This document shows, piece by piece, positions 1-56,182 of a DNA stretch of 64,000 nt (positions are counted from its first letter, which is position 1; every line of letters starts with the position of its first letter). Location of the stretch: positions 22,093-86,092 of the forward strand of contig JAVYML010000003.1 in the NCBI GenBank assembly GCA_038736355.1, given 5' to 3'. Position numbers and translations under genes: made by a program. Source of the DNA: Candidatus Hadarchaeales archaeon (lineage in GTDB: Archaea; Hadarchaeota; Hadarchaeia; Hadarchaeales; WYZ-LMO6). The notes beneath the pieces were generated by a model. The model worked only from the letters and a program-made list of their open reading frames with translations. It did not search any database and was not told the DNA's origin.

Positions 1-565
1 AGCCGGTGCTTTGGACGGCATTGCTGCCGCCATACCCCAAAGTTGAGGTAGCAAACCGCGGGGTCGATATGGACTCTCGCCCGCGACCACTCTGTTATCC
101 CCGGGGTACCTTTTCTGTCATCCGGAGCCCTCACCAAGAGGGACATCCGGGTTCGCTAGGCCCGGCTTTCGCCCCTGCGCGCCTTGGTAGTGAGCGCGCA
201 GTCAGGCCGGCTTTTGGCCTTGTCCTTGGCGGCGGAGTTCTGACCCGCCTAAGCCGACCTTTGGACCCCCTCGATATCTTTTCGAGGGGCTGCCGCCCCA
301 GCGAAACTGCCCACCTGCCGTTGTCCCCCTGACGGGGTTAGGGGCACGGTTAGGAGTGGGCGGTGTTACATCGGCGCCTCCGCCGGACCCGAAGATCCGG
401 CTTCCACGGCTCCCGCCTACCCTCTGCACCCGCAACCGCGTCCCAGCGACAGGCTGCAGTAAAGGTCCACGGGGTCTTCGTTTCCCTTCGGGGGACCCCG
501 GCATGTTCGCCGGCAAGCGGGTTCACCGGGTTGCAGGCCGGGACAGTGGGGGGCTCGTTGATTCC

Positions 566-597
<32 letters not shown>

Positions 598-602
598 TTA
601 CG

Positions 603-1304
603 CTACCTTAAGCTCCCTTCCTCACATGTCGGAAGGTGGACCATATCATCGCCCTCCTCGGGCGCCTGGCGTATGGTCTCTGAGGATCCCCCTTCAACGA
701 GCCTTTCCAGTTTTTCCCTCTTTTCGGGATGTCTGAATCCTATGGCATCCCTGAACTTTTTCACTCTCTCCAAGCCTTTTATGACCAGCGAGAACTGCGG
801 ATTTTTCCCCCATGCCCTCGGTTTTTTGACGGAAATCGCACTTTCAATCCCTGCTTCCAGAAGAATTCCATGTAGCTGTCCGATGAGAGGCCTGGCGATC
901 ATGTCGATCCCGACATATGGATAGCTGTAGGTTTTTCCCCCATGCTTTTGTTTGTCGACTCCACAGTAGCCTTCTGCATCGAAGAGCCCCCTTGCCACCT
1001 CCAGCCTTGAGACTTTGTCCTCCGTGAAAGTCTTCGGAATTCTGAGGGTGGTGAGTTTCCTTCCCTTCGGGTACCCGATTTTCACGAAGAACTTATGGAT
1101 ATCCTTGCGGTTGGTACTGACTATCCAACAGTTCGGCGAACCCCTGTTCACCCTCGGCTTGAAGTTGAAGATCCTTTCGACGGTCTTTGCGATGCTTTCC
1201 GCAAATTCCCTGTTCTTATCCCTGCAAAACACCGTGTACGAATTTCCATAGACACCTCCGTCACCGAGCATTACACCAACGAGGTAAGCTAGGGACTCTG
1301 TCAT
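603..1304 (-). CDS. LAGLIDADG homing endonuclease (intron-encoded). The ORF runs 9 nt into the downstream exon.
   Basis: Two LAGLIDADG-type motifs are present (LAYLVGVMLGDGGV and RGLFDAEGYCG). The start is chosen at the Met just before the first motif (MTESLAYLVG). The long ORF-track version (to 1523) extends into exon sequence and is not used. Confidence 0.7.
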   Translation of the reverse strand: MTESLAYLVGVMLGDGGVYGNSYTVFCRDKNREFAESIAKTVERIFNFKPRVNRGSPNCWIVSTNRKDIHKFFVKIGYPKGRKLTTLRIPKTFTEDKVSRLEVARGLFDAEGYCGVDKQKHGGKTYSYPYVGIDMIARPLIGQLHGILLEAGIESAISVKKPRAWGKNPQFSLVIKGLERVKKFRDAIGFRHPEKREKLERLVEGGSSETIRQAPEEGDDMVHLPTCEEGSLR

Positions 1305-1463
1305 CACTGTCGATTTAAGAGGGACTCTGTTATTTCGTTTCCGGCCCTCTGGGGTTTCCTGCGGGTCGACCTCATCGGAGATGGACTTTGTTACCCTTTT
1401 TCGGGTAGCCCATCTCCCCTCACGTCTTCCCCGCATACAGCCAGGTTTTACAACCCCCTTCTC
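612..1463 (-). mobile_element. rRNA intron (archaeal type) encoding a LAGLIDADG homing endonuclease, inserted near E. coli 23S position ~1925-1927
   Basis: Removing 612..1463 restores the conserved 23S sequence ...GGGGGTAACTATAACCCTC/TTAAGGTAGCGTAATACCTTGCCG. The intron interior carries the endonuclease ORF. Boundaries are good to within a few nt. Confidence 0.75.
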
Positions 1464-3599
1464 GAGGGTTATAGTTACCCCCGCCCATTGGCGGCGCTTC
1501 GGCCGGTTGTACCCGGCTTTCACGTACCGCCTGTAGGCAGAATTCAGCTCCCGTACTCACCCTTTCGGGCTAGCGGGAACCTACGTTTTTATTAAACAGT
1601 CGGCCCCCCCTGGTCACTGCGACCTGCCCTCCGCAGGGCAGGCACCCCTTCTCCCGAAGTTACGGGGCCAACTTGCCGAATTCCCTGGCCTGCTGTCTCC
1701 CGTCACACCTTAGGCTTCTCACCTAGGGGCACCTGTGTCGGATCTAGGTACGGTCACCCAGGATCCCATTTCCGGTCCCCCTTTTCACGGGCCCCGGAGA
1801 TGAACCGAACCCGCCTAACGGCAGGCCCATCCCGCCCTCATCCGGTTCTCTCCATTACGGAACTCCCCGGACTTCGACGGTTGGATGGGGCGACGGCCCC
1901 ACTCGGTCTGCCCCGAGGCGTCGGAGGACCGGCCTGCGTTGCCGCCGGTACCTGGGTGGTTCCGGAATATTAACCGGATTCCCTTTCGGCGGCCTCTGGT
2001 TGAGGGCCGCCTCAGGACCGACTAACCCTCGGCTGACGACCATTGCCGAGGAACCCGGGCCCCTTCGGCGGTGGGGATTCTCACCCCACTAGGCTGTTAC
2101 TACCACCAGGATCCTCGTTCCCACGCGGTCCACCCGACCTCACGGCCGGGCTTCTCCCCACGCGGGACGCCCCCCTACCGGATCAGGCTACTGAACTTCG
2201 CCTGCCCCGGGGTCTCGGCAGCTGGCTTAAGCCCCGTTCATCTTCGGTGCCCCCACCCTCGACGGGTCCGCTTTTACGCGTTGTTTAAAGGGTGGCTGCT
2301 TCTGAGCCTACCTCCCCGCTGTCTCAGGGTGGAGACGCCCTTTGGATTTCTGCACTTAGCCAGCATTTGGGGGCCTTAACCCCGGTCTGGGTTGTTCCCC
2401 TCTCGGAGCGGGAGCTTACCCCCCGCACCCCGTCTCCGGCGGTCTACGGCGCCGGTCGCTTCGGAGTTCGACAGCGAGGGCAAGGGTTTCCCCCTGTCAC
2501 CCCGCAATCGGTGCTCTACACGACCGGCTACCTCGCGCCGGGCCTGACTGCGGCCAGCTTCGGGGGGAACCAGCTGTCACCGGGCTTGATGGGTCTTTCG
2601 CCACTAGCCCAGGGTCATCCGACCGAATTGCACGTCAAGACCGGTTCGGCCCTCCACCCCATAGAGGGGCTTCAGCCTGCCCTGGACTAGATCGCCCGGT
2701 TTCGGGTCTCACCGCCGTGACTCCGGGCGCTGTTAACACCCCGTCCCTCGCCCTTTCGGGCTGCGGACCGTCGCTTTCGCTCCGGCTCCGGGGTTTCAAC
2801 CCCTTAACCTCGCCACGACGGTGAACTCCCTGGCCCGTGATTCAAGACGGACGGTACGACCCCGATCCCCCTCCCTCGTACCACCGCCTCACGGCGGCTT
2901 CCTTCGGGAGGGCTCACCTCTTTCGAGCCGTACCTTACTGTCGCCACCTGGTTTCAGGCTCTTTTCACCCCCCTTCCGGGGTACTTTTCAGCTTTCCCTC
3001 GCGGTACTGCGTTCGCTATCGGTCTCGAGACGTATTTAGGGTTGGGAGTTGGTGCCTCCCAGCTTCGGACGCCAATCCCAAGGCGCCCTACTCAGGATCC
3101 CTCCCCTCGTATCCTGCACAGTTACCCCTACGGGGCTTTCACCCTCTACGGCGCGCCATTCCAGGCGACTTCGGGTTCCCGTGCGAGGAATTGGGGGAGG
3201 TCCTACAACTCCACATCCCCGACGACTTTCGCCGCCGGGTTCGGTTTGCCCTGTGCCCTCTTCACTCGCCGTTACTGAGGGCATCGCTTTTGCTTTCTCT
3301 TCCTCCCGGTACTGAGATGTTTCACTTCCCGGGGTTCCCGTTCGCAGCTCCCAAAAGAGCCGCGAACGCAGGGGGTTAACCCCTGCAGGATTCCCATTCG
3401 GTGATCCCGGGTTCTACGGCTGCCTGCGCCTCGCCCGGGCTTTTCGCAGCTTGCCACGACCTTCTTCGGCGCTCGAGCCGAGCCATCCCCCAGGTGGCTT
3501 GGTTCCCCGCTCGACGGCTTCCGGACCTGTGCCTGGCCTCATCAGCTTTTAGCCTGAGCCCTTCGCGCGAGAAGCGCTCTCTCTTCCCGCGCTGCATGC

Positions 3600-3674
3600 T
3601 GGTGGACCCGCCGGGATTCGAACCCGGGGCCTTCGGCTTGCAAAGCCGACGCTCTACCACTGAGCTACGGGCCC
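3600..3674 (-). tRNA. tRNA-Ala (anticodon UGC), CCA encoded, in the 16S-23S spacer
   Basis: Reverse complement folds as GGGCCCG-TA-GCTCAGTGGTAGAGC-G-TCGGC-TTTGCAA-GCCGA-AGGCC-CCGGG-TTCGAAT-CCCGG-CGGGTCC-A-CCA. The G3:U70 alanine identity pair is present and the anticodon is TGC. Confidence 0.9.
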
Positions 3675-3706
3675 AAGAGAAGTCCGGGCCTCCGCCAGAT
3701 ATATAC

Positions 3707-5190
<1,484 letters not shown>

Positions 5191-10088: not shown

Positions 10089-11000
10089 ATGAGCAGACCA
10101 CCCTTCTGCCATCTTTTCCGTCTCTGGTACCTGAAACGCCGGCTTCTCCCCCGTCCCCACTTCATCCTCTTTCCCACCTTCAGATGCAATTATTACGGGA
10201 GATGCCCTTACTGCCACCTCTTGGACATGGGTTTCCCCCGCCTCTACCCGGAGGACCTGTCCGTGGAGAAGGCCGTGGATTCCTTCCTCCGCTTTTCCGA
10301 TTCGGAGCTGGACGTGTCGGGAGGGGAGCCCTTCCTCTGGCGGGGAATCAGGGAATTCGTGGAAGAGGTGGGGAAGGAGAACAGGGTGGGTGTGACCACC
10401 AACCTCTCCTGGGAGGTGGAGAGGGAGAGGGAATGGCTATCCGGTTTCAGCTCCATAACGGCCAGCTATCATCCCGAGGCGGTTGGGTTGGAGGAGTTCT
10501 TGAAAAAAGTGGTGCTGCTCCGCTCCATCCATCCAAAGGTGAAGGTAAACGTGGTGGCCTATCCCCCTCTCCTCCATCGGGTGGGGGAGGCGGTGGAGAG
10601 GTTCAGGAGGGAGGGAATTTTCGTCCACGTGGATCCCTATCTCTCCCCCTACACCAAGGGAGAAAGGGAATGGGTGAGGCTTCTCTTGGTGAGCAAGAGG
10701 AAGGTGGAGTTCCCGCCGGCGGGCCTGAAGAAATGCGATGCGGGCAGAAGACATTTCGTGGTCCTGCCCGATGGGAGCGTCTACACCTGCTGGAACGGAT
10801 GCATGCTGGAACACCTCCTAGGCCCTTCCGTGCTGGGGCGTTCCTACCGGTTAGGGAATTTGCTGGAAGGTACTTTCTCTCCCTTGCGGGAGGAACTCGA
10901 ATGTTGGCTCCCCTGTTCTGCCGGCTGCGATTTGGACTATGTGAAGCAGCGAACCATCACAGAGGTTAAATCCATGGGGAAAGAGAGGATGGATTGGTGA
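10089..11000 (+). CDS. Radical SAM/SPASM-domain protein (putative peptide/protein maturase) with a non-canonical CX5CX2C cluster motif
   Basis: FRCNYYGRCPYC is followed by DVSGGEPFLW (SAM-binding GGE). C-terminal Cys-rich region CWNGC...CWLPCSAGCD is typical of SPASM/twitch auxiliary clusters. The stop TGA 10998-11000 overlaps the start of the next gene. Confidence 0.8.
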   Translation: MSRPPFCHLFRLWYLKRRLLPRPHFILFPTFRCNYYGRCPYCHLLDMGFPRLYPEDLSVEKAVDSFLRFSDSELDVSGGEPFLWRGIREFVEEVGKENRVGVTTNLSWEVEREREWLSGFSSITASYHPEAVGLEEFLKKVVLLRSIHPKVKVNVVAYPPLLHRVGEAVERFRREGIFVHVDPYLSPYTKGEREWVRLLLVSKRKVEFPPAGLKKCDAGRRHFVVLPDGSVYTCWNGCMLEHLLGPSVLGRSYRLGNLLEGTFSPLREELECWLPCSAGCDLDYVKQRTITEVKSMGKERMDW

Positions 11001-13933
11001 GGGCCTTTGCGGAGGTGGCGGCCGGGGCGGCGCTCCTTCTCTCCCTCCTTCTCCTTTCCCCGCTCAGTGCCCTCACTTTCACGGACACCATCAACGCCGA
11101 TTTCGCCCAGGGAATCCACGAGAACACGGAGAACGTGAACGACGACCTCAGGCTCAAGGTAGGCTACCTGCAGGGCAGGTTCACCTCAAGGGTCTTCGAC
11201 GCGGGGCAGTTACAAGTCTGGGATACCCTTTCCTGGAATGCCACCCTTCCCACCCTCATGGTGAGCGTGGAGAACGACAACGTGGGGGCGGAGCCCACCA
11301 CGCTGGTGGACGGGACCGTCAGGATGGGGAGGATTACGGGGGGCTCCCTCTTGGACACCCGTACGGCGAACGGGGTTTACGAAAATATAACGGAGGAGGC
11401 GGGAGCCCCCTACGGGGGGATGGTGAACCTCATTCTCTTCTGGGATGGAGCCTCCATCCCCTCCGGCTGGACCTGCATCTCCGATGATGCGGGGGAACCC
11501 TTTTACTACAGGTTTCCCATGGGGGGATCTACCTACGGGAGCACGGGAGGAACGGAGACCCACACCCACTCCAGCACCTCCTCCTGCGGGGGTCCCTCCG
11601 CCACCCTCCAGAGGAACTCGGGAAGTGCCGTGACCACCGCCACCAGTACCCACACCCACACTCCGACCGTCACCGTTGCCACCGAAAATCATCTCCCCCC
11701 CTACTACGACCTGAAGGTGATCAGGTACAACTCCGGGATTCCCTCCATCCTGCCGGCGGGCGTGATAGCCCTTTTCCCCTCCACCTCCCTCCCCCCGGGC
11801 TGGTCCCTCTACACGGCGGCGGATAACCGCTTCCTCAGGGGGGCCCCTTCGGCAGGGGGTATGGGGGGAAACCCCACCCACACCCATAGCGTGAGCGTGA
11901 GCACTGGGGGCCCCTCCTCTACGGTCGGGCTGGCCACGGACCCCTGTGATGACTCCACCGCTTATCCCACCAGCACCCACACCCACACCGGGTCGGGTAC
12001 CACCTCGTCCGCCACCAACCTTCCACCCTACATAACGGTGGTCCTGGGCAAGGCCGGCTCCGACACCCCTATACCCGGGGGGATGATAGGGATGTTCGAC
12101 GGCATTCCAAGCGGTAACTGGACGGTTCTCCCATCCTTCAACGGGAGGTTCCCGATGGAGAACCTCACCGCCGGATACGGGGTCACGGGAGGGAGCTCCA
12201 CCCACAACCATTCCGACCTGAGTATTACCACCGGGACGGGTGCCACCGCTTCGGCCAACCTGGATGCGGGAACCGCCGTCACCTTCGCCAGCGGTACCCA
12301 CACCCACACCGTCACGGTTTCCTTCACCGAGAGCTCCCACCTTCCCCCTTACGTCACGGTGATCTTCGCCCAGGCCACCTGCGGGCTCCGCTGGCAGCAG
12401 AACATAGAGAATGTTACGACGGGCTACTCCAACTACCAGCTGCAGGTGAAGGGTAAGACGAGCGGTGATTCCGAAAATGTGAGGGTATACGTGTGGAAGA
12501 GCGGCGAAAACTCCTGGGAGTACGTGGGGGACCTCACGGGAACTGAAACGACCCTCACTAAGAACATCCCAGCTTCGGAGCTTTCCTCCTACCTGAGCGG
12601 GACCAGCCTGCTGGTCAAGTACGAGTCGGCAGACAACACAGATCTCTCCCCCACCACCCTTCATGTGGACCTCTGCATACTGGTGGAGGGTGTGCTTTAC
12701 CAGAGCTACGTGAAGTTCAGGGTTAAGGTAAGTGCCGATGGCTCAACATGGAGTGAGGAGCTTGGTCCAGACGGCACCCCCAACACCTTCTTCACTTCCT
12801 CCCCCGCCAACCTGGATACCATTCCGGAAAACCGGTACATCCGCTACGTGGCGTACCTCTCCAGTGAGCATTCCCAGCTCACGGGTGCCAACGGTCCAAA
12901 GGTACACGATGTGACCATCACCTCCCTCACCGCCGGACAGGCCAACGTGTTCACCATGGAGGCCGAGAACGTGGGGTGGGAGAGTGCCACCCTCACCGCC
13001 AGGCTCCTCTACGTGGATCCAACTGCGGTGGTGAGGTTCCAGTACATGCCGGAGGGTGGCACTTGGGTGAGCACCCCCTGGAAAAGCTGGCAGGGAAGCT
13101 GGTACTGGTATCCACTCACGGGCCTGCAGGAGAACAAGAAGTACTACTTCCAGGCGCAGGTGAGATACGGCGGACAGGTCTATGGGGGTGGAATCAGAAC
13201 CTTCAAAACCCTCTCCAGCAAGCCCTATGCCATCACCCTGAAGGCCACGGAGGTGGACAACTCCTCCGCCGTGCTCAACGCCAGGATTTACTACGCCAAC
13301 TACGACAGCGTGAGCATAAGGTTCTGGTACCAGAAGGATGGGGTCTGGACGGCCACCCCTCTCGTTTCCGGCTACAGGGGCACCACCTACAGCTACAGGG
13401 TCACGGGCCTTACCGCGAACACGCTCTACTACTTCAAGGCCGAAATCACCTACGATTCCACGTCCGAGAACGCCAACGTGGAGACCTTCACCACCTTCTC
13501 CTCCAAGACCACCGGCATGGCCTACGATGGTGGTATGGGCTTTGGTTCCTACCCTTCGGGCTGGCATGGGGTAAGGATGACCCCGCCTTCCGGTACGACG
13601 GGTCTGAAACTGGAGCTCCTCACCTCTTCATCCTTCTCCGCCCATCACACCCTTCGGGTGGTGAGGGACAACGGGGAGCTGCTTTACGCGGGCCACGTCC
13701 TCTCCGACAACGGGAGGAGCAAGGTGGTGAGCGTGAGGTTCTGGAAGAGCACGGCTGGGGAGAGCGTGTACGTGGAGCTTTACGATCCCTACGGTTTCGC
13801 CTACAGGACCAAGGGCACCAAGGCCTCCCTAGGAGGGGCCACATACGCCTATTCCTATCTGGACCGTGCCGGAAAGAACCTGAAGTACTACGACAGGGCT
13901 TGCGGCGTGAACGTGCTAGAGATTTACACGTGA
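10994..13933 (+). CDS. Large secreted protein (979 aa) with signal peptide, three tandem phage tail-collar-like repeats carrying six HxH motifs, then FN3-like beta-sandwich domains
   Basis: N-terminus VRAFAEVAAGAALLLSLLLLSPLSALT is a signal peptide. Three ~100-aa repeats run from aa ~143 to ~456. Each has a PxGW core, a first HxH (THTHS / THNHS), a second THTHT about 40 residues later, and a closing (N/H)LPPY(Y/I/V)(D/T)(L/V)(K/V)(V/I)I. The C-terminal half has FN3-like endings (YYFQAQVRYGG...IRTFKT and YYFKAEITYD...VETFTT). The start is TTG/GTG at 10994/10997; no ATG is in frame. Confidence 0.8.
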   Translation: MVRAFAEVAAGAALLLSLLLLSPLSALTFTDTINADFAQGIHENTENVNDDLRLKVGYLQGRFTSRVFDAGQLQVWDTLSWNATLPTLMVSVENDNVGAEPTTLVDGTVRMGRITGGSLLDTRTANGVYENITEEAGAPYGGMVNLILFWDGASIPSGWTCISDDAGEPFYYRFPMGGSTYGSTGGTETHTHSSTSSCGGPSATLQRNSGSAVTTATSTHTHTPTVTVATENHLPPYYDLKVIRYNSGIPSILPAGVIALFPSTSLPPGWSLYTAADNRFLRGAPSAGGMGGNPTHTHSVSVSTGGPSSTVGLATDPCDDSTAYPTSTHTHTGSGTTSSATNLPPYITVVLGKAGSDTPIPGGMIGMFDGIPSGNWTVLPSFNGRFPMENLTAGYGVTGGSSTHNHSDLSITTGTGATASANLDAGTAVTFASGTHTHTVTVSFTESSHLPPYVTVIFAQATCGLRWQQNIENVTTGYSNYQLQVKGKTSGDSENVRVYVWKSGENSWEYVGDLTGTETTLTKNIPASELSSYLSGTSLLVKYESADNTDLSPTTLHVDLCILVEGVLYQSYVKFRVKVSADGSTWSEELGPDGTPNTFFTSSPANLDTIPENRYIRYVAYLSSEHSQLTGANGPKVHDVTITSLTAGQANVFTMEAENVGWESATLTARLLYVDPTAVVRFQYMPEGGTWVSTPWKSWQGSWYWYPLTGLQENKKYYFQAQVRYGGQVYGGGIRTFKTLSSKPYAITLKATEVDNSSAVLNARIYYANYDSVSIRFWYQKDGVWTATPLVSGYRGTTYSYRVTGLTANTLYYFKAEITYDSTSENANVETFTTFSSKTTGMAYDGGMGFGSYPSGWHGVRMTPPSGTTGLKLELLTSSSFSAHHTLRVVRDNGELLYAGHVLSDNGRSKVVSVRFWKSTAGESVYVELYDPYGFAYRTKGTKASLGGATYAYSYLDRAGKNLKYYDRACGVNVLEIYT

Positions 13934-16104: not shown

Positions 16105-16435
16105 GTAAGATATATTACTGCGGGAAGAAAGAAGAATGGTGCCGGCGAGCTGGTGGGCAGCTGCCGGGCGGTAACGCCTGAGGAAATTCCACCCCTCAAG
16201 CGGGTACCGCGAGTCCGTGAGGACTGGGCCGAGAGGCCCGACCCTGGCACAGAAACGATACCCGCCGGCTTCTCGAGGAGGATGAGGCGGAAACGCTGAG
16301 AGGGGGTCGGGGGATGAAACGGCCATTCCGCGGGAGGCAAGGGCAAAAGACCGTCTATGAGCACCCGCTCGAGACGGGTGGTAGCCCGCTAAGCCCAATG
16401 CTGCCTAGAACAGAAGGTGGATTACGGCCAGGACG
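16105..16435 (+). ncRNA. rnpB: Candidate RNase P RNA (archaeal type A-like)
   Basis: A ~430-nt GC-rich gap between acs and rps26e has no credible ORF. It contains motifs resembling conserved RNase P RNA regions: GGGCGGTAACGCCTGAGG (P10/11-like GGUAACGCC), GGCACAGAAACGATACCCGCCGG (like ACAGAAAACAAACCGCCGG), GGCAAGGGCAAAAGACCG (like CAAGGCCAAAUAGGG), and GCCTAGAACAGAAGGTGGATTACGGCC (like CUAGAUAGAUGAUCGCC). A clean CR-I (GGAAAGUCCGGGCUCC) is not obvious and the ends are approximate. Confidence 0.5.
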
Positions 16436-16473
16436 CCGGCACTCCATCACCCTTTTATCCCGTAGACGGGAGG

Positions 16474-45075: not shown

Positions 45076-46395
45076 ATGAACAGGTGGATTTGTCCCCTTC
45101 TCTCCTCCCTCCTTCTTCTTTTCCTCCTTCCTCCCTCCTTCGCCGGTTCTTCTGTCTATTCCTTCCAAGCCACCTACAGGCTCACCAACACCAGTTCCTC
45201 CGAAGTAGAGGGTTGGCTAGAGGTCTTTGCCTTTGACAACGAGAACTTCGGGTGGGATTTCCAAGTGGTACTGGAAGAGAACTTCTCTCCCATGCCGCAA
45301 GAGTTTCGCGGGGAGGATAATAGGATCTTGAAGTTCCTTTTGGGAAAGCTTCCTCCAGGAAGTTGGAAGGAGGTCCGCCTAATCCAGCTCCTGAGGGTGA
45401 AAGGAAGGAAGTGGGAAAGGCTGGAGGGGGAGGGGGAAATCCCACAAGAGCTCCTGAAGTTCACGGTCCCCGTCCCGAACCTCTGGGAGGATGCTCCGGA
45501 GTTGAAGGAGAAGGCGGAGGAGTTGAGGGGGGAAACCCCCTATTTGACCGCCAAGAACCTCTTCGAGTTCGTGAAAAACCATCTGAGTTATGTCAAATGG
45601 GCTCAGGATCAGAGTGCCCTTCAGGCCTATCGAAGCCGTGTGGGAAAGTGTACGGAGTTCACCAACCTCTTCATTGCGCTGGCTAGGCTCTCCGGTCTTC
45701 CCGCCAAGTTCCTAGCTGGATATGGCTACAACTCCAAGCTGGGTGAAAACGCCGAGGAAATGGGGCATGCCTTTGCAATCCTGTACCTCCCGGGTGTGGG
45801 ATGGGTGCCGGTGGACGAGACTTGGATGGGAGGACAGTTTGGGGAACTGGGGGAGGATCATCTCATCCTCTTCTCCAGCGATGGTTCCAATTTGGTAAAG
45901 AACGGAAGGGTGAGCATTCCGGGTGAGAAATGGAGTGGGGGAACGAAGCTGGAAAAATTCCTCTACCTTTACAGGGAGGCAGCGGTGGAAGCGGACCTGA
46001 AGAGAGGGGGACTGGAGAATGGAAAAATAGCAGTGATGGTAACTCTGAGAAATACTGGCAGGAGCATTCTCGAAGATCTAACCGTGCGCTTGGAAGTGGA
46101 GGAGGACTCTTTCCGTCCCGTGGCCCCACAGATGGTGAAGAGGCTGTCTCCCAGGGAGGAGGTGGAGGTGGATTTCTACTTGGAGCCCTTGAGGGGAGCG
46201 GAGAATTCTCCCTTGAGGGCAGAGGTATGGGCCCGCAGCCCCTATGGGGAGGTTTCCTCGGAGAGCACCATGTTCCTTACGGTGGTTATCGAACCCGCAC
46301 CTTCCCCACTCCCTCTGCCCTCCGAGCTCCTTCTATCCGCGGTAGCAGGGTTAGTGGTGGTAGTAGTCCTGATCCTTCTCCTCAAACGCCGCTGA
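45076..46395 (+). CDS. Secreted transglutaminase-like cysteine protease-fold protein with C-terminal TM anchor
   Basis: Signal peptide (LLSSLLLLFLLPPSFAGSS). Cys-His-Asp triad GKCTEFTNLF...GHAFAILYLPGVGWVPVD. C-terminal hydrophobic anchor followed by KRR. Confidence 0.75.
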   Translation: MNRWICPLLSSLLLLFLLPPSFAGSSVYSFQATYRLTNTSSSEVEGWLEVFAFDNENFGWDFQVVLEENFSPMPQEFRGEDNRILKFLLGKLPPGSWKEVRLIQLLRVKGRKWERLEGEGEIPQELLKFTVPVPNLWEDAPELKEKAEELRGETPYLTAKNLFEFVKNHLSYVKWAQDQSALQAYRSRVGKCTEFTNLFIALARLSGLPAKFLAGYGYNSKLGENAEEMGHAFAILYLPGVGWVPVDETWMGGQFGELGEDHLILFSSDGSNLVKNGRVSIPGEKWSGGTKLEKFLYLYREAAVEADLKRGGLENGKIAVMVTLRNTGRSILEDLTVRLEVEEDSFRPVAPQMVKRLSPREEVEVDFYLEPLRGAENSPLRAEVWARSPYGEVSSESTMFLTVVIEPAPSPLPLPSELLLSAVAGLVVVVVLILLLKRR

Positions 46396-46434
46396 TTTCT
46401 CCGTTTTAAAATTCCTCCATCTCAAACAACTCCG

Positions 46435-46590
46435 ATGGGTTCGCTCCCCTTTCTTCTCCTCCTAGCGGTCCTTTGGTATCTTTTCGTCTGGCAGAAGGGA
46501 AAGCTGGTAGAAAGAAGGAACGACCTCTTACAGGCCCTACGAAGGGTGGAGGAGGATCTGCGCAGGGCCTTGGAGGGAGAGCATGCATGA
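46435..46590 (+). CDS. Small (51 aa) membrane-anchored hypothetical protein
   Basis: MGSLPFLLLLAVLWYLFVWQKGK... is an N-terminal TM helix followed by a charged helical tail. Not a class III (pilin) signal. Confidence 0.35.
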   Translation: MGSLPFLLLLAVLWYLFVWQKGKLVERRNDLLQALRRVEEDLRRALEGEHA

Positions 46591-47125
46591 GGAACTTTTG
46601 AGAAGGGTGGAAAAGTTGGCGGGGGAGGAAAGGCTTTCTCCATCTTTCTTTGATGGGATTCTGGAACTGCTTTTGGAAATAAGGTCCAGACCTTCCCTTA
46701 GCTCCGATCCGGAGATAGCATCGGTTCTCCAGTGGATGGAGGAACTGAGCTTCAGGCTGAAGGATTCCGATAGGGGTTGCAGGTCTGGCTTTCTCAGGGA
46801 GGAGTGGAGGAGGATTAGGATTTACGAGTTCAGGAGGTTGAAGGAGGGTCTCTCAGTGTTGGAAAAAAGGTTGAGGGAACGTCTACGAGGAGACCCTCCC
46901 TTGGAGCTGAGAAGGTTGGTGGAAGAAATGAGGGAGGAGGGCGCGATAAGGGAAACCACTTGGGCCCTCCTGCTTTCCTCCCCTTGGGGTAAGAGGGAAA
47001 TGGAAAGGAGGGAAGTGAAGGAAGCCCTCCTCAGGGTCCTGCGCCTCTTCTCGGAGTTTAGGGAGTTGAGGAGGGAAAACCGTGGGATGGAGAAAAAAGA
47101 CTTCGGTGCTGGTGGAGCACGGTAG
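46583..47125 (+). CDS. Hypothetical coiled-coil protein (180 aa, Arg/Glu-rich)
   Basis: ORF with a periodic charged helix pattern. The ATG overlaps the stop of the previous small ORF. Confidence 0.4.
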   Translation: MHEELLRRVEKLAGEERLSPSFFDGILELLLEIRSRPSLSSDPEIASVLQWMEELSFRLKDSDRGCRSGFLREEWRRIRIYEFRRLKEGLSVLEKRLRERLRGDPPLELRRLVEEMREEGAIRETTWALLLSSPWGKREMERREVKEALLRVLRLFSEFRELRRENRGMEKKDFGAGGAR

Positions 47126-47240
47126 ATGGATTTCTCAACTCCTCAACGACTTCAGGGTGTTGGAGCAGCGCTTGGAGCACTTGGAAAAAAGGGTTGGAAT
47201 GCTGGAGGAGTGTCTCCGCCGTCTTTTGGAGGGAAAATGA

Positions 47241-49373
47241 TTGGTTTGTGGTTTCAGGATCCTGAGATTTGGCAGGAAGAGGGTTCTGCGCTTCGAATGC
47301 GAAACCTGTGGGGAGAGTGCAGATCCGGGGCTCTCCAGCAAGTGCATGGAGGGCTTGCTTCGGGGACTGGCTGATTGCCCCGAGGTAGAAGAGGTACAGT
47401 TTCCCGGAGCCTACGAGAAGGAATATGCGGGGGAAGAACTGAAGGGTCTGAAAAAGCTAGCTTTTCTCCTTTTCGACTGGGAACTCAGAGCAATGATGAA
47501 AACTTGTGTGGGATGTGGAAGATGCGAGGGGGAGAGGAAGAACCTCCTCTCTTCTCTTTCCTCCCGTCTTTCCCTTTCTCCCCTTCAGGCCAAGGAGAAA
47601 TTGAGGGGTTTTCTCGGGGAGATGGAGGCCCTATCCAAAGGGGGAAGTGGGAAATGCAGGGAATGCCGTTCCTTCTTCCTAAAGGAGTTCTTGCGCCCCA
47701 TGTGGGAAGAACTGAGAAAAACTTGTGAGGAGGTCTTCAGGGAGGGAAGGCTTGCCGGGCCCAAACTCCGCCCTTCTTTCATGTTCTCCAAGCTGAGGAT
47801 GGATCCTCCACTTGGCTCGGAGCCTGTAGAGGAATACAGCTTGCCAGGAGGAAAGGTGAAAATTTACAGATATCCTCCCACTTCTCAGTTCCTCTACTTC
47901 CTCTTTCCCAACGAGTGTTTTCTTCCTCCGGACTTCGTGAGGCTTCTCCACGAGCTCAGGGAAAACCTCTTCCGGGATCCTCCTTCTTTAGAGGGTGACA
48001 GGGAAGTTCTGGAGGAAAAGATCAGGAGACTGTCGGCGAAGAGGATAGCGGAGGAGATGGGGAGGAGGGGTTGGAGGACTGGAAAGGAAGAGATATACCG
48101 TCTTTCGGAGTCCCTGACCAGGTTTACCGTGGGTTTTGGAGTGCTGGAACTCCTTTTCTCGGACGAGAAGGTCCAAGATATCTATCTGGATGCCCCACCC
48201 GGAGAGACCCCCATTCACCTTTACCATCAGGATTTCGAGGAGTGTCTCACGAACGTTTATCCTTCGGAGGAGGAAGCGGAGCTTTTGGTTTCAAGGTTGA
48301 GGGCCCTAAGCGGCAGACCCTTTTCCGAGGCTGATCCCGTACTGGAGGCAGAGCTTGGGGAAGTGAGGATTACGGCTATAGGACCTCCCCTCAGCCCGGA
48401 AGGAAAGGCCTTTTCCTTCAGGAAACACCGCTCCTCTCCCTGGACCCTCCCCCAGTTTGTGAAAATGGGTTTTCTCGATTCTTCCACGGCTTCTCTCCTT
48501 AGCCTCTTAGTGGATGCACAGGCTTCCCTTCTCCTGACGGGTACGAGGGGCTCGGGCAAGACTTCCCTCCTCACGAGTCTCCTCTTCGAACTTCCTCCCA
48601 AGTTGAGGATTCTCCTGCTCGAGGACACGGCCGAGCTTCCCTCTGCCTTTCTTCGCGCGTTGGGATTCAAGGTACAGACTCTTCGCATACGTTCACCGAT
48701 AGGTAGAACAGAAGTTGAACCCTCTGCGGAGGAGGCCCTGCGGACCGCCCTTAGGCTCGGAGAATCCGTGTTGGTGGTGGGAGAAGTAAGGGGCCCCGAG
48801 GCCAGAACCCTCTTCGAAGCGATGAGGGTGGGGGCGGCGGGGAACTGCGTGATGGGAACCATCCACGGGGCCAATGCGCGGGAAGTCTTCGAGAGGGTGG
48901 TTCATGACTTGGGAGTGCAGCCCTCTTCTTTCATGGCCGTGGATGCCGTGGTGTCAACTGCTCCCATCAGGCCCCTCGGAGGGATGAAGAAGAGGAGGAA
49001 GGTAGTGCAGGTGGCGGAGGTGGTGAAGGGGAAGGAGGGAGAGTTCAGGGAACTGGTGAGGTATGAGGTGGGGAGGGATAGATTCGTAATGAAGGGATGG
49101 AAGGCCTCAGAGCTCCTTCGTTCCGTGGCGAGGAAGTGGGGAATGGATCTCCGTACTCTCCTGTCCTATTGGAGGTTGAAGGAGAAGCTTCTCAGAACGC
49201 TCGTGGAGGCGAGTTCGAGGAAGGGGAGACCGGAGCTTCTGGAGGCTAGGTTCCTCTTCCGCTCCAATCAGAGGTTTAGGCTGCTTTGGGAGGAAGAAGT
49301 GGAGGGGGGAAGGCCCCTTCCCGAGAGAGTGGAAAAGAGGTGGAAGGAATGGTTGAGAAAAGCAGTCGAGTGA
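47241..49373 (+). CDS. Type IV pilus / archaellum-type secretion ATPase (FlaI/ArlI/TadA/VirB11 family) with a Cys-rich N-terminal extension of ~160 aa
   Basis: Walker A LLLTGTRGSGKTSLLTSLL, Walker B / Asp box ILLLEDTAEL, His box VVGEVRGPEARTLFEAMRVGAAGNCVMGTIHGANA. The N-terminal 160 aa carries four Cys pairs (FECETCGE, CMEG...ADCPE, KTCVGCGRCEGE, GKCRECRSF). Start is TTG at 47241. Confidence 0.8.
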   Translation: MVCGFRILRFGRKRVLRFECETCGESADPGLSSKCMEGLLRGLADCPEVEEVQFPGAYEKEYAGEELKGLKKLAFLLFDWELRAMMKTCVGCGRCEGERKNLLSSLSSRLSLSPLQAKEKLRGFLGEMEALSKGGSGKCRECRSFFLKEFLRPMWEELRKTCEEVFREGRLAGPKLRPSFMFSKLRMDPPLGSEPVEEYSLPGGKVKIYRYPPTSQFLYFLFPNECFLPPDFVRLLHELRENLFRDPPSLEGDREVLEEKIRRLSAKRIAEEMGRRGWRTGKEEIYRLSESLTRFTVGFGVLELLFSDEKVQDIYLDAPPGETPIHLYHQDFEECLTNVYPSEEEAELLVSRLRALSGRPFSEADPVLEAELGEVRITAIGPPLSPEGKAFSFRKHRSSPWTLPQFVKMGFLDSSTASLLSLLVDAQASLLLTGTRGSGKTSLLTSLLFELPPKLRILLLEDTAELPSAFLRALGFKVQTLRIRSPIGRTEVEPSAEEALRTALRLGESVLVVGEVRGPEARTLFEAMRVGAAGNCVMGTIHGANAREVFERVVHDLGVQPSSFMAVDAVVSTAPIRPLGGMKKRRKVVQVAEVVKGKEGEFRELVRYEVGRDRFVMKGWKASELLRSVARKWGMDLRTLLSYWRLKEKLLRTLVEASSRKGRPELLEARFLFRSNQRFRLLWEEEVEGGRPLPERVEKRWKEWLRKAVE

Positions 49374-50968
49374 ATTTTTTCATCCGCTCTTGCAGATGGG
49401 CAGGCAAGTGGTTGGGTAAGCGGTGGAAGGAAGATACTGAATTGGAAGAGAGTTTGAGGTTCCTAAGGTGGGAAATAGGGATGGGGGAAGTGAAGGCTTT
49501 TGCCCTCCTTTCCTCCCTCCTTTCCCTGCTTCCCCTTTTCCTTCTCTTACTCCTTTCCCCGAAGTTCCTCCCCCTCCTCCTTCTTCCTCCCTTGGTTTAT
49601 TGGTGGGTTAGGACCCACCCCATTAGGCAGATGGAGAAGGAAAGGGAGAGGGGAAGGGGGGAAGTACCCAGGCTCCTGTGTGCCCTTTCTTCTTCCCTCC
49701 TCTTGAATCCCAACTTGGAAGTAGCCGTGTCCTTTGCAGCGGAAAATGCGGAGGGGAAGATGGGACCAGAACTGAAGAGGGAACTCTCCAATTTTTTTCT
49801 GGGGATTCATAAGGGGGCGGAGGAAGTCCTTAGAAGGTTCTCGGAGAGGTGGGGAAATCCCCCAGAGCTCTCCAAGCCTCTTCCCCTCCTCCTAGCTTCG
49901 GTGAAGATGGGGGAGGAAGACAGGAGAAAGGCCTTGGAGCAGGCGCTGGAAACTTCTCTCGAAGAAGTGAGGGAGAGGTTGAGGAGTTTTCTGGGGTGGG
50001 TGAAGCTTCCCCTTTTCCTCCTCTATTCCTTCGGGGTAGTGCTCCCCCTTTGTCTCCTCACCTTGGTTCCGGTTTTGGGTTCCACGGGTCTCCTTTCCAG
50101 TCCCCTCCCTCTAGTCATGCTCTACGGCTTTCTTCTTCCTTCAACACTCTATCTCCTGAGCTCTTGGATTCTTTCCAAGCGTCCCCTCTTCTCATCTCCA
50201 CACGATTCGCCGTCGGCTGGAATATTCTTCTTCCTTTTACCCCTCCCCCTTCTCTTTCCCCTCTTCCGTTCGCTTCCCCCCTCCGAGCCAGGGGTGTTGG
50301 GTTTTCTTTGGTTGGTAGTCCTCCTCCTTTCCCTCTACTTCCTCTCCAAGCGGGATGGGGGAGAACACCTCCGCTCGCTGGAAATGGAGGAGGATTTTCC
50401 AGGATTCCTACAAGAGCTGGGAAGTAGGTTGAGGGAAGGCAGACCGATGGAGGAAGCATTGAGAAGGGCAAGCGAGAACAGGGGGAAGCTTTGGGAGAGA
50501 TGGGAGGATTCACCTTCTAGGCTAGTAAAGGGTACTCTTTTCCTCCTTCTCGGGTTGGCAGAACGCAGCGAGAGGGCGACTGGAGAGGCAGCCCTGCAGC
50601 TTTCTTCCCATTTGAGAAAGTTGAGGGAGGTAGAGCGTTGGGGGAGGCAGGAACTGGCGGAGATTTCTTCTTCCATGCGTTCTATGGCCCTCTTCTTTTC
50701 ACCCCTGATCATCTCCTTGACCTGTCAGATGTACTCCGTTCTCTGGAAGAGGGGAATGGGTTTCTTACCCAGCTTCCTTCCCCCTCCCCTTCTCCTCTTC
50801 TTACTTGGTAGCTACCAGCTGATCCTTACCCTTTTCCTCCTCCACCTCCTTTCAGAAATGGAAGGAACGGAAAGGGGAACCCTTTTCGCTTCCGGTCTTC
50901 CCCTCTCCCTTTCGATGTTTACCCTGGGTACAATAGGTGGTGGGGCCTTCTTGAGTTTTCTCACCTAA
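49370..50968 (+). CDS. FlaJ/TadC/GspF-like polytopic membrane platform protein (two T2SS-F-like repeats)
   Basis: Two cytoplasmic helical-bundle segments (…ELKRELSNFFLGIHKGAEEVLRRFSERWG… and …FLQELGSRLREGRPMEEALRRASE…), each followed by TM helices. GTG start overlaps the ATPase stop (GTGA). Confidence 0.7.
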   Translation: MNFFIRSCRWAGKWLGKRWKEDTELEESLRFLRWEIGMGEVKAFALLSSLLSLLPLFLLLLLSPKFLPLLLLPPLVYWWVRTHPIRQMEKERERGRGEVPRLLCALSSSLLLNPNLEVAVSFAAENAEGKMGPELKRELSNFFLGIHKGAEEVLRRFSERWGNPPELSKPLPLLLASVKMGEEDRRKALEQALETSLEEVRERLRSFLGWVKLPLFLLYSFGVVLPLCLLTLVPVLGSTGLLSSPLPLVMLYGFLLPSTLYLLSSWILSKRPLFSSPHDSPSAGIFFFLLPLPLLFPLFRSLPPSEPGVLGFLWLVVLLLSLYFLSKRDGGEHLRSLEMEEDFPGFLQELGSRLREGRPMEEALRRASENRGKLWERWEDSPSRLVKGTLFLLLGLAERSERATGEAALQLSSHLRKLREVERWGRQELAEISSSMRSMALFFSPLIISLTCQMYSVLWKRGMGFLPSFLPPPLLLFLLGSYQLILTLFLLHLLSEMEGTERGTLFASGLPLSLSMFTLGTIGGGAFLSFLT

Positions 50969-55667: not shown

Positions 55668-56182
55668 GTGCCAAACAGCCCATATCGGGTTACGTATAAC
55701 ATCGAGCATGGCTACAGAGTTTTAGAGTTTCTGGAAGCGTATGGGCTGATGCTCCGGAGGGCGATAGACGAGATATGGGATAGGATTGGGTGGGTTGAGA
55801 AATTCGGTGGATCTGGGGAACGCAGATCCTTCCGATCATACCCAAAGATGGAGCGTTCAAGAACCATTATCTGAGGGATCCGTTGATGAAGGATTGGACC
55901 TACCCAAAGCACTACGTCGACTCGGCTATTAAGCAGGCATACAGGGCAGAGACTTCATCCATAAGCCAACGACTTTTCTCTCCGGGGAATACGAGCAGAA
56001 GGTGCTCCAGATGTGGGATGATCAATGCTCCGAAGGGAGCGAAATACGAATGCAGGGGATGCGGGTTAAGGATCGATAGGCAGCTCAACGCTGCCATAAA
56101 CCTGTACCTTCAGATGGAGGGAGCTTTCTCCGGGCAGGAAGCTCTTCAACGGGCTGATGAAGGCCTGGAGCGTTCACCCTGA
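55668..56182 (+). pseudogene. tnpB: Remnant of an IS200/IS605-family TnpB (OrfB) gene, C-terminal RuvC-III / zinc-finger part only, split across two frames
   Basis: 55883..56182 translates to ...TYPKHYVDSAIKQAYRA...RRCSRCGMINAPKGAKYECRGCGLRIDRQLNAAINL, the TnpB C-terminal Zn finger plus the final RuvC motif. An upstream 68-aa piece lies in another frame. The N-terminal ~250 aa (RuvC-I/II) are missing. Local GC is lower. Confidence 0.65.

Follow-up and report, generated by a model that had tools for sequence, protein, structure and literature searches.

A conserved five-gene operon of Hadarchaea for a type IV pilus-like ATPase and membrane platform, with a lineage-specific trio of small genes

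Hadarchaea are uncultured subsurface archaea. We analyzed a stretch of 64,000 nucleotides (nt) from Candidatus Hadarchaeales archaeon (assembly GCA_038736355.1, contig JAVYML010000003.1, positions 22,093 to 86,092 of the forward strand), which we call the window; all positions below are within it. At 46435-50968, a run of five genes is a real, conserved operon for a type IV pilus-like ATPase and its membrane platform. This locus probably contains the genes for the core, at the cytoplasmic membrane, of a type IV pilus-like filament machine, and the most probable lineage for that machine is the archaeal subclade 4F. Machines of the 4F kind, with a cysteine-rich N-terminal domain on the ATPase and dispersed pilin genes, are already known, and the window contains a hadarchaeal member of this kind with a lineage-specific trio of small genes. 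The trio is what is new here. It lies ahead of the ATPase, is specific to Hadarchaea, and is predicted to comprise a membrane-anchored coiled coil (p51), a helical protein of ~200 amino acids (aa) (p180), and a short coiled coil (p52). The features of the locus, all on the + strand, are:

45076-46395, +: gene for a transglutaminase-like protein (open reading frame map and Pfam)
46405-46412, +: TATA-like TTTTAAAA in a 39-nt spacer (read from the sequence)
46435-46590, +: p51, a 51-aa transmembrane peptide, conserved in hadarchaeal loci
46583-47125, +: p180, a 180-aa helical protein, conserved
47082-47240 (or from 47106), +: p52, a conserved short coiled coil
47241-49373, +: ATPase, 710 aa, with a TTG start and a match to Pfam's T2SSE
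47241-47735, +: N-terminal domain of the ATPase (aa 1-165), with eight conserved cysteines and an AlphaFold2 (AF2) model
49370 (alternatively 49349) to 50968, +: platform protein (GTGA overlap, orthologues, and hydropathy)

An earlier interpretation of this DNA, which we call the sequence-only reading, placed the 710-aa ATPase in the FlaI/TadA superfamily. This is borne out by the match to T2SSE (83.6 bits against a cut-off of 24.9, E = 1.4e-23, covering aa 312-577) and by the intact motifs. Walker A (GTRGSGKT, aa 434-441, 48540-48563), the Asp box (LEDTAELP, aa 460-467, 48618-48641), Walker B (VLVVGEVRG, aa 510-518, 48768-48794), and the His box (GTIHG, aa 539-543, 48855-48869) are all invariant in our alignment of the ATPases (A1). 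The protein is 100% identical to one from a Candidatus Hadarchaeales metagenome-assembled genome that is annotated by NCBI as "type II/IV secretion system ATPase subunit."

The ATPase does not belong to any of the better-known families that have curated models. We ruled out TadA, FlaI, BasE, TrbB, and VirB11, as every one of these models scored far under its cut-off. The best score from NCBIfam was for the TadA-family model TIGR03819 (149 bits against 373); the FlaI equivalog NF058587 gave 126.8 bits against 550, the BasE model NF053672 gave 84.5 bits against 1000, and the models for TrbB and VirB11 were likewise far under their cut-offs. By sequence, the closest entries in the PDB are GspE from A. 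fulgidus (AfGspE; 2OAP, 5.5e-33), FlaI (9.5e-25), and CpaF (2.6e-24), and all of these structures align to the ATPase only from about residue 287 onward.

AfGspE (AF0659), the best match among solved structures (aa 287-592), shares the N-/C-terminal ATPase core and the hexameric secretion-ATPase mechanism. However, it lacks the 165-aa cysteine-rich N-terminal domain, and it belongs to another clade (clade 2, arCOG01817) with clade-2 pilin sets. The resemblance to the bacterial Tad pilus (CpaF/TadA with TadB/TadC) extends to the T2SSF-repeat platform as well as to the scores for TadA and CpaF, but the TadA score is under the cut-off, the window is from an archaeal lineage, and it has no TadZ, RcpA, or Flp-type genes.

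We also considered whether the pair could be the motor of an archaellum. FlaI and FlaJ are a homologous ATPase-platform pair, some sources call homologues of this ATPase "flagellar protein FlaI," and FlaI is among the best matches in the PDB. On the other hand, the FlaI equivalog scored less than a quarter of its cut-off, and no genes for FlaH, FlaF/G, FlaCDE/X, or archaellins were found in the window or in the gene lists of related loci that we inspected. Also, in a 2026 preprint, the 4F ATPases are reported to be a structural cluster of their own, separate from the archaellum ATPases. We consider an archaellum motor to be highly improbable.

The sequence-only reading had coupled the ATPase, via a GTGA stop-start overlap, to a FlaJ/TadC-like membrane protein. 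The overlap is indeed present: the stop codon of the ATPase (TGA, 49371-49373) overlaps a GTG at 49370, which is in frame with a membrane protein that ends at 50968. From this GTG, the protein has ~532 aa; there is an alternative ATG at 49349. The protein from the window matches Pfam's T2SSF at below the threshold (19.7 bits against 25.2, E = 8.5e-4). The orthologue from locus L001 passes (27.4 bits, 3.6e-6, on repeat 2), and the orthologue from L002 matches repeat 1 at 3.6e-4. Because orthologues match T2SSF and the gene adjoins the ATPase gene in 69 loci, directly after it, we identify the membrane protein as a polytopic platform of the TadC/FlaJ/T2SSF type, with two predicted cytoplasmic domains. 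About 7 segments are over the hydropathy threshold, and we estimate ~9 transmembrane helices, if the 38-aa first segment is counted as two helices and an unscored C-terminal stretch is included.

Full-length relatives of the ATPase, including its N-terminal domain, are 690-790 aa long. In Hadarchaea they are 42-78% identical to the protein from the window, and in Methanocella they are 37-38% identical. Full-length relatives are also found in Methanosarcinales, ANME-2, Methanoperedens, Thermoplasmata/Thermoplasmatota, Micrarchaeota, Iainarchaeota, Diapherotrites, and Hydrothermarchaeum. Scanning a single genome from each species gave at least 590 loci with the ATPase. Two of the hadarchaeal homologues (P0066 and P0070) are longer, at 1224-1226 aa, and contain LAGLIDADG_3 and intein-splicing domains from Pfam; given their length and these domains, the ATPase hosts an intein in some lineages.

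The most distinctive part of the ATPase is its first ~165 aa. This region is conserved in over 100 full-length homologues, which come from Hadarchaea, Methanocella, Methanosarcinales, Thermoplasmata, and DPANN archaea. The sequence-only reading had noted four cysteine pairs in the N-terminal ~160 aa. The cysteine-rich extension is real, but the conserved set is eight cysteines that form two tetrads: C3/C20/C23/C35 and C92/C95/C139/C142. These include three CxxC pairs (C20-x2-C23, C92-x2-C95, and C139-x2-C142). Each of the eight is present in 70-102 of the 109 homologues that we aligned, so the possibility that the cysteines would not be conserved in orthologues, which that reading had raised against itself, did not materialize. 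Proteins from Methanocella, Methanococcoides, Methanoperedens, and ANME-2 keep cysteines at the equivalent positions. Four other cysteines (C46, C89, C162, and C226) are lineage-specific and are not conserved across the 109 homologues.

We built an AF2 model of aa 1-280 from the 109 homologues, and its confidence was high (predicted local distance difference test, or pLDDT, of 93.6). In the model, a small beta/alpha unit (aa 5-63) is followed by four long helices (64-165), and beyond aa 165 there is a beta-rich region that partly matches the N-terminus of AfGspE. C20xxC23, C92xxC95, and C139xxC142 are each placed at the start of a helix, which is where metal knuckles usually sit. With CxxC knuckles that are conserved across the family, the sequences fit the pattern of Cys4 sites. 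Since there are two such sites in a cytoplasmic domain, the simplest reading is two structural zinc ions. The domain is thus predicted to bind metal, and most likely two structural metal ions, probably zinc, in two Cys4 sites.

This domain does not resemble others that we searched. A Foldseek comparison to the PDB found nothing with E < 0.4 for the first 165 residues, so by its fold the domain is not a classical zinc ribbon. No model from Pfam or NCBIfam covers it. When we searched 1.8 billion representatives exhaustively with phmmer, we found the domain nowhere but at the N-terminus of this ATPase family. (A profile search with the domain alignment, A4, against a word-indexed database returned just 2 matches, and it missed the query's own family.) Bacterial GspE and PilB ATPases have a structural zinc site with four cysteines (CxxC...CxxC) in their C-terminal domain. 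In contrast, the two sets of four cysteines considered here are in an N-terminal domain of its own, with a fold that is unmatched in the PDB.

The features of this ATPase and its platform match a system that was described by Makarova et al. (2016; PMC4858521). Their subclade 4F comprises an ATPase (arCOG01818, "MA1299-like") and a TadC protein with 9 transmembrane helices (arCOG01814). The 4F ATPases have an additional N-terminal cysteine-rich domain and are prominent in Methanomicrobia. The 4F pilins are mostly encoded elsewhere, as stand-alone genes; the cognate pilins are arCOG02981 and others, with a "KG" motif and a hydrophobic segment. In haloarchaea, the accessory protein is a cytoplasmic coiled coil (arCOG07564), and some members of 4F, in nanoarchaea, have no identifiable pilins. 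In their tree, nanoarchaea, Thermoplasmata of the Methanomassiliicoccales type, and haloarchaea are together. They also report that genomes of Methanocella and Methanosarcina contain exactly one clade-4 ATPase each (all from PMC4858521).

Because the orthologues from Methanocella and Methanosarcinales share the cysteine pattern, because Methanocella and Methanosarcina have just one clade-4 ATPase each, and because the phyletic spread and the description match, the pair from the window very likely belongs to subclade 4F. The shared features are the cysteine-rich N-terminal domain of the ATPase, the adjacent TadC with ~9 transmembrane helices, pilins that are mostly encoded elsewhere, a candidate coiled-coil accessory protein within the locus, and a spread over Methanomicrobia, Thermoplasmata, haloarchaea, and DPANN/nanoarchaea. 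There are differences as well. The census of Makarova et al. did not include Hadarchaea; the hadarchaeal set of p51, p180, and p52 is not the haloarchaeal arCOG07564, and its similarity to DUF7310 is weak; and the locus in the window has no pilin, S-layer-like, CetZ, or HerA/DUF87 neighbours. Also, the ATPase from the window keeps all eight cysteines, whereas the haloarchaeal and nanoarchaeal members have lost them. The sequence-only reading had suggested a distinct secretion or surface-assembly module, and it had named the alternative of an already known system with its pilin genes at other places. It is this alternative that fits, both in the description of 4F and in the links from relatives to pilins and to the prepilin peptidase (Peptidase_A24).

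The three small genes ahead of the ATPase gene have the same order in every hadarchaeal locus that reaches far enough. The sequence-only reading had the ATPase preceded by only two genes, for a 51-aa membrane peptide and a 180-aa protein. Both of these exist and are conserved, but there is a third conserved gene, p52, between them and the ATPase. (Our counts of junctions and reading frames are for 26 hadarchaeal loci, including the window, while those for p51 are for 25 related hadarchaeal loci.)

p51 appears to be a single-pass protein, with an N-terminal transmembrane helix followed by a charged cytoplasmic helix. Homologues of 48-109 aa, with the motif AxAWH...LLxxAExDLLRxLR, are encoded directly upstream of p180 in 21 of the 25 related loci. 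We also considered p51 as a minimal pilin or class III prepilin, and ruled this out, as it has neither a basic leader nor a G/A cleavage site.

p180 is predicted to be an all-helical cytoplasmic protein. It has a conserved L..DW motif, and its homologues are ~200 aa long (alignment A6). Each of the hadarchaeal loci that are long enough has a match to a hidden Markov model of p180 directly upstream of the ATPase. p180 has no match in Pfam or NCBIfam. AF2 gave an all-alpha fold from the single sequence (pLDDT 68.6), and a Foldseek search with this model found nothing with E < 0.5.

p52 starts at GTG 47082 (52 aa) or at GTG 47106 (44 aa, as in the public annotation), overlaps the end of the p180 gene, and ends at a TGA directly before the start of the ATPase. 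Its motif, VLxEHGRWI...LEQRL..LE+RV (given more specifically as VLAEHGRWI...LEQRL..LERRVS), is conserved in all of the hadarchaeal loci (alignment A3). Just 3 of 21 members have similarity to DUF7310 (best E = 2.7e-6), which is below the cut-off and is among many generic coiled-coil matches from Pfam.

The sequence-only reading had seen p52 as a 38-aa open reading frame at 47127-47240, set off from the ATPase by a stop codon or joined to it by read-through. The codon at 47127 is TGG, which is not a start codon, and the conserved gene begins at GTG 47082 or 47106. That p52 and the ATPase are one protein, either by read-through or recoding of the TGA or because the TGA is a sequencing error, might seem to be suggested by the arrangement in the window, where the open reading frame is in frame with the TTG start and abuts it without a gap. 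However, p52 is conserved as a gene in its own right: of the 26 hadarchaeal loci (the window included), 24 have it out of frame with the ATPase, typically with a 4-nt overlap. Moreover, the orthologous ATPases all start at the equivalent site, one to a few residues ahead of C3, and independent assemblies show the same arrangement (the ATPase gene is on 13 contigs, of which we read three places). A single p52-ATPase protein is therefore extremely unlikely. Since p52 is conserved and mostly out of frame, and since the orthologous ATPases share their start, we view the in-frame abutment in the window as a coincidence of its zero-nucleotide junction.

By sequence, the three proteins of the trio are found only in Hadarchaea. 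In Hydrothermarchaeum profundi (L034, 8026-9999), the ATPase is preceded by genes for a MinD/ParA-like ATPase, a charged protein of 88 aa, a protein of 233 aa, and a coiled coil of 84 aa, in an order reminiscent of the hadarchaeal trio. Comparison of the hadarchaeal proteins to their positional analogues in L034 with hhalign gave marginal similarity, with E = 0.37 for p180 and E = 8.7e-4 (at 23% probability) for p52.

The five genes overlap or abut each other, with junctions of 8, 44, 0, and 4 nt, and their order is kept in most of the ~26 related loci from Hadarchaea (p51, at the front, is the one found in 21 of 25). The 39-nt spacer after the transglutaminase-like gene contains TTTTAAAA, which resembles an archaeal TATA box and lies 23 nt upstream of the first ATG. 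Together, the overlapping junctions and the position of this box suggest one leaderless operon transcript, with TTTTAAAA as its candidate promoter; the box was identified by eye. A scan for bacterial promoters and terminators was at background level, and bacterial models are not relevant to archaea.

Could the operon be the decaying remnant of a pilus system that was lost? There are no pilin genes nearby, and both p52 and p51 are shorter in the window than in most of their relatives. But the catalytic motifs are all intact, and the five genes, with their coupled junctions, have been kept by hadarchaeal lineages in which the identity between ATPases is only 42-48%. We consider decay to be very unlikely.

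The sequence-only reading was correct that the locus lacks genes for pilins and for a prepilin peptidase: our scans of the 64-kb window found neither, and the scan for pilins of the EG|LPxRL type found none. The absence of the A24 peptidase from the locus is normal in archaea. The label of "orphan" does not hold, as relatives of this pair are linked to pilin genes in DPANN archaea and to the A24 peptidase in Thermoplasmata. In the DPANN relatives, small genes with class III signals are found in tandem right after the platform gene, with N-termini such as MRKAQA|FTVFKLLIAS and MRGQA|FDTFKLMIAAV. More broadly, class-III-signal genes are near the platform gene in 22 of 46 non-hadarchaeal loci, and the typical N-terminus is [KR]GQA|F..F.LLIAA. 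In Thermoplasmata, Peptidase_A24 adjoins the orthologous ATPase in L003/L047, L038, L040, L056, and L063.

Another group of pilin-like proteins, with N-termini of the form ...E.(L/I)P(I/V)RL..., is found at loci from Thermoplasmata, Methanocellaceae, and a Haloterrigena plasmid. The pilin-like proteins from Thermoplasmata have direct sequence matches to one protein from L068, and the Haloterrigena protein matches another; EG|LPVRL pilin-like proteins are common to a locus from Methanocellaceae and a locus on a Haloterrigena plasmid. In several Thermoplasmata (L003, L038, L053, L061, L080, and L082), a gene for a DUF87/HerA-like ATPase is divergently upstream of the orthologous ATPase, and it is often accompanied by Peptidase_A24 and a pilin-like protein (..MIPIRLIISI..). 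A DUF87 gene is also near the locus on Haloterrigena pHTUR04.

Hadarchaeal loci normally lack pilins, and two of them (L018 and L029) have candidate pilins of the KG|hydrophobic type beside the operon. The candidate in L018 carries a carbohydrate-binding domain of the CBM11/CIA30 type. At L021 (14208-15464, - strand), directly after the platform gene, there is a homologue of sugar-binding periplasmic binding proteins with a class-III-like N-terminus (MEIDSRG|IARSQILLIVVV), which recalls the substrates of the Sulfolobus bindosome.

These neighbours raise the possibility that the core machine inserts or assembles non-filament surface proteins with class III signals, such as adhesins that bind carbohydrates or substrate-binding proteins, rather than a long pilus. 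The Bas bindosome of Sulfolobus (BasE/BasF) likewise combines an ATPase with a platform, and it deals with class-III-signal proteins that are not classical pilins. A binding protein of this sort adjoins the operon in one hadarchaeal locus, the L018 neighbour has its carbohydrate-binding domain, and most hadarchaeal loci have no dedicated pilins. However, the BasE model scored less than a tenth of its cut-off, and there are no small pilins like BasABC. Small canonical pilin genes are found in tandem in the DPANN relatives, and the neighbours in L021 and L018 are single cases among ~26 loci. A bindosome-like machine seems unlikely to us.

If the locus does encode the core of a 4F filament machine, then by homology to the well-studied members of the superfamily, the ATPase would dock as a hexamer on both cytoplasmic domains of the platform. 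Domain movements powered by ATP would lift pilins with class III signals, once processed by the peptidase, from the membrane and add them to a surface filament at its base. Genes for these pilins and for the A24 prepilin peptidase would be elsewhere in the genome, as is typical for 4F. The N-terminal domain is probably a metal-stabilized docking surface for lineage-specific accessory proteins, here p180 and p52, and, via p51, would connect to the membrane. The trio of p51, p180, and p52 probably serves as a stator or scaffold, which would either tie the ATPase to the membrane or regulate it. The archaellum ATPase is surrounded by scaffold proteins that are coiled coils or are anchored in the membrane, FlaX among them. 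Those proteins are not homologous to the trio, which would be analogous in its role, without being homologous, to FlaX/FlaH of the archaellum or to PilM/N/O.

Directly upstream of the operon, as the sequence-only reading had noted, is a gene for a secreted transglutaminase-like protein (45076-46395). The protein matches Transglut_core from Pfam (66.6 bits against a cut-off of 23, 2.7e-18), and its triad of Cys192, His231, and Asp247 is intact, in the motifs GKCTEF, GHAF, and PVDET. It has an N-terminal signal peptide and a C-terminal transmembrane anchor (hydropathy segments at 4-24 and 411-439). Its link to the module held up to a limited extent, in 6 hadarchaeal loci including the window. 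Homologues adjoin the operon in L004, L005, L024, and L028, and one is ~4.3 kb away in L018, so the gene is adjacent in 5 of the 6 loci. As there are just these six loci, with two orientations, we view the link as a loose functional one: this surface protein, with a cysteine-protease fold, is probably an associated gene and not part of the core operon. As a membrane-anchored extracellular enzyme, it may act on the filament or the envelope, by processing or cross-linking. Surface peptidases that belong to the transglutaminase family have already been reported to be linked to type IV pilus loci (PMC4858521).

The transglutaminase-like gene also bears on another explanation, which is that Hadarchaea have repurposed the pair as a pilin-independent module, for translocation of protein or DNA, or for remodelling the envelope together with this enzyme. 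The enzyme's gene is near the operon in those six loci and adjacent in five; the accessory trio was found by sequence in Hadarchaea only, with marginal positional analogues in Hydrothermarchaeum; and the same idea was put forward by Makarova et al. for other systems of clade 4 that lack pilins (PMC4858521). Yet the ATPase and the platform are full-length orthologues of pilin-linked ones, with 36-48% identity over their whole length, and dispersed pilin genes are the rule in 4F. That pilins are missing from 64 kb tells us little about a megabase genome. We consider this explanation to be improbable. A more specific proposal is that a hadarchaeal pair of the 4F type gained p51, p180, and p52 as a stator on a two-metal Cys8 N-terminal domain and works without classical pilins, which we think is improbable. 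If it were true, a pilin-free machine would export or anchor other surface proteins, or would remodel the envelope with the transglutaminase-like enzyme, and the hadarchaeal machine would be a functionally distinct offshoot of the type IV filament machines.

Several observations weigh against a 4F filament machine as we have described it. First, no class-III-signal pilin, A24 peptidase, or other filament component is encoded in the 64-kb window. Second, our placement of the pair in 4F is based on matching descriptions, phyletic spread, and shared N-terminal domains, rather than on a tree with the references of Makarova et al. Third, our reading of the literature turned up no experimental study of a 4F system, so "pilus" is an inference for the whole subclade. 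Fourth, the trio has no detectable homologue in characterized systems. Finally, Makarova et al. suggested that the cysteine-rich domain forms disulfides rather than binding metal (PMC4858521).

Machines of the 4F type are widespread: they are found in methanogens, Thermoplasmata, haloarchaea, DPANN archaea, and now Hadarchaea. The operon suggests that Hadarchaea make adhesive surface filaments. It is also a target for biochemistry, with all eight cysteines kept, a compact conserved operon, and a confidently predicted fold that has no counterpart in the PDB or Pfam. The 2026 preprint proposed that extra N- or C-terminal domains of these ATPases are interfaces for the accessory proteins of each subsystem, and the N-terminal domain described here is well suited to testing the idea that such domains are adaptors for lineage-specific accessory proteins. 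For annotation, the lesson is that an archaeal ATPase/platform pair that lacks adjacent pilin genes is not necessarily an "orphan."

The genes around the operon are housekeeping genes, including those for a tRNA synthetase, eRF1, TGT, TctA, and diphthine-ammonia ligase. Because the locus is flanked by these genes, and because there is an rRNA operon at the start of the window, the locus is chromosomal rather than mobile DNA. The same gene order is found in independent assemblies, and the metagenome-assembled genomes GCA_038896995.1 and GCA_038867935.1 contain the operon.

The rRNA operon is at 1-5188 on the - strand, with the 23S rRNA at 1-3514 (cut by the edge of the window), a tRNA at 3603-3674, and the 16S rRNA at 3709-5188. 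The match to the 23S model covers model positions 1-2647 in 3514 nt, which implies an insertion of ~870 nt. An open reading frame at 603-1523 (- strand) encodes a LAGLIDADG_3 protein (2.6e-14), and the insertion is probably an rRNA intron that bears a homing endonuclease.

At 55883-56182 (+ strand), a 99-aa open reading frame consists solely of a Cas12f1-like/TnpB TNB zinc-ribbon domain (PF07282, 2.7e-12) and is likely to be the remnant of a TnpB of the IS200/IS605 type. A predicted secreted protein of 979 aa, with the N-terminus MVRAFAEVAAGAALLLSLLLL and no match in Pfam, is encoded at 10994-13933 (+ strand), downstream of genes for a glycosyltransferase, UbiA, and a radical-SAM protein; it could be an S-layer or surface protein. 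Finally, an archaeal RNase P RNA (202.8 bits) is at 16145-16436 (+ strand), where it overlaps spurious open reading frames.

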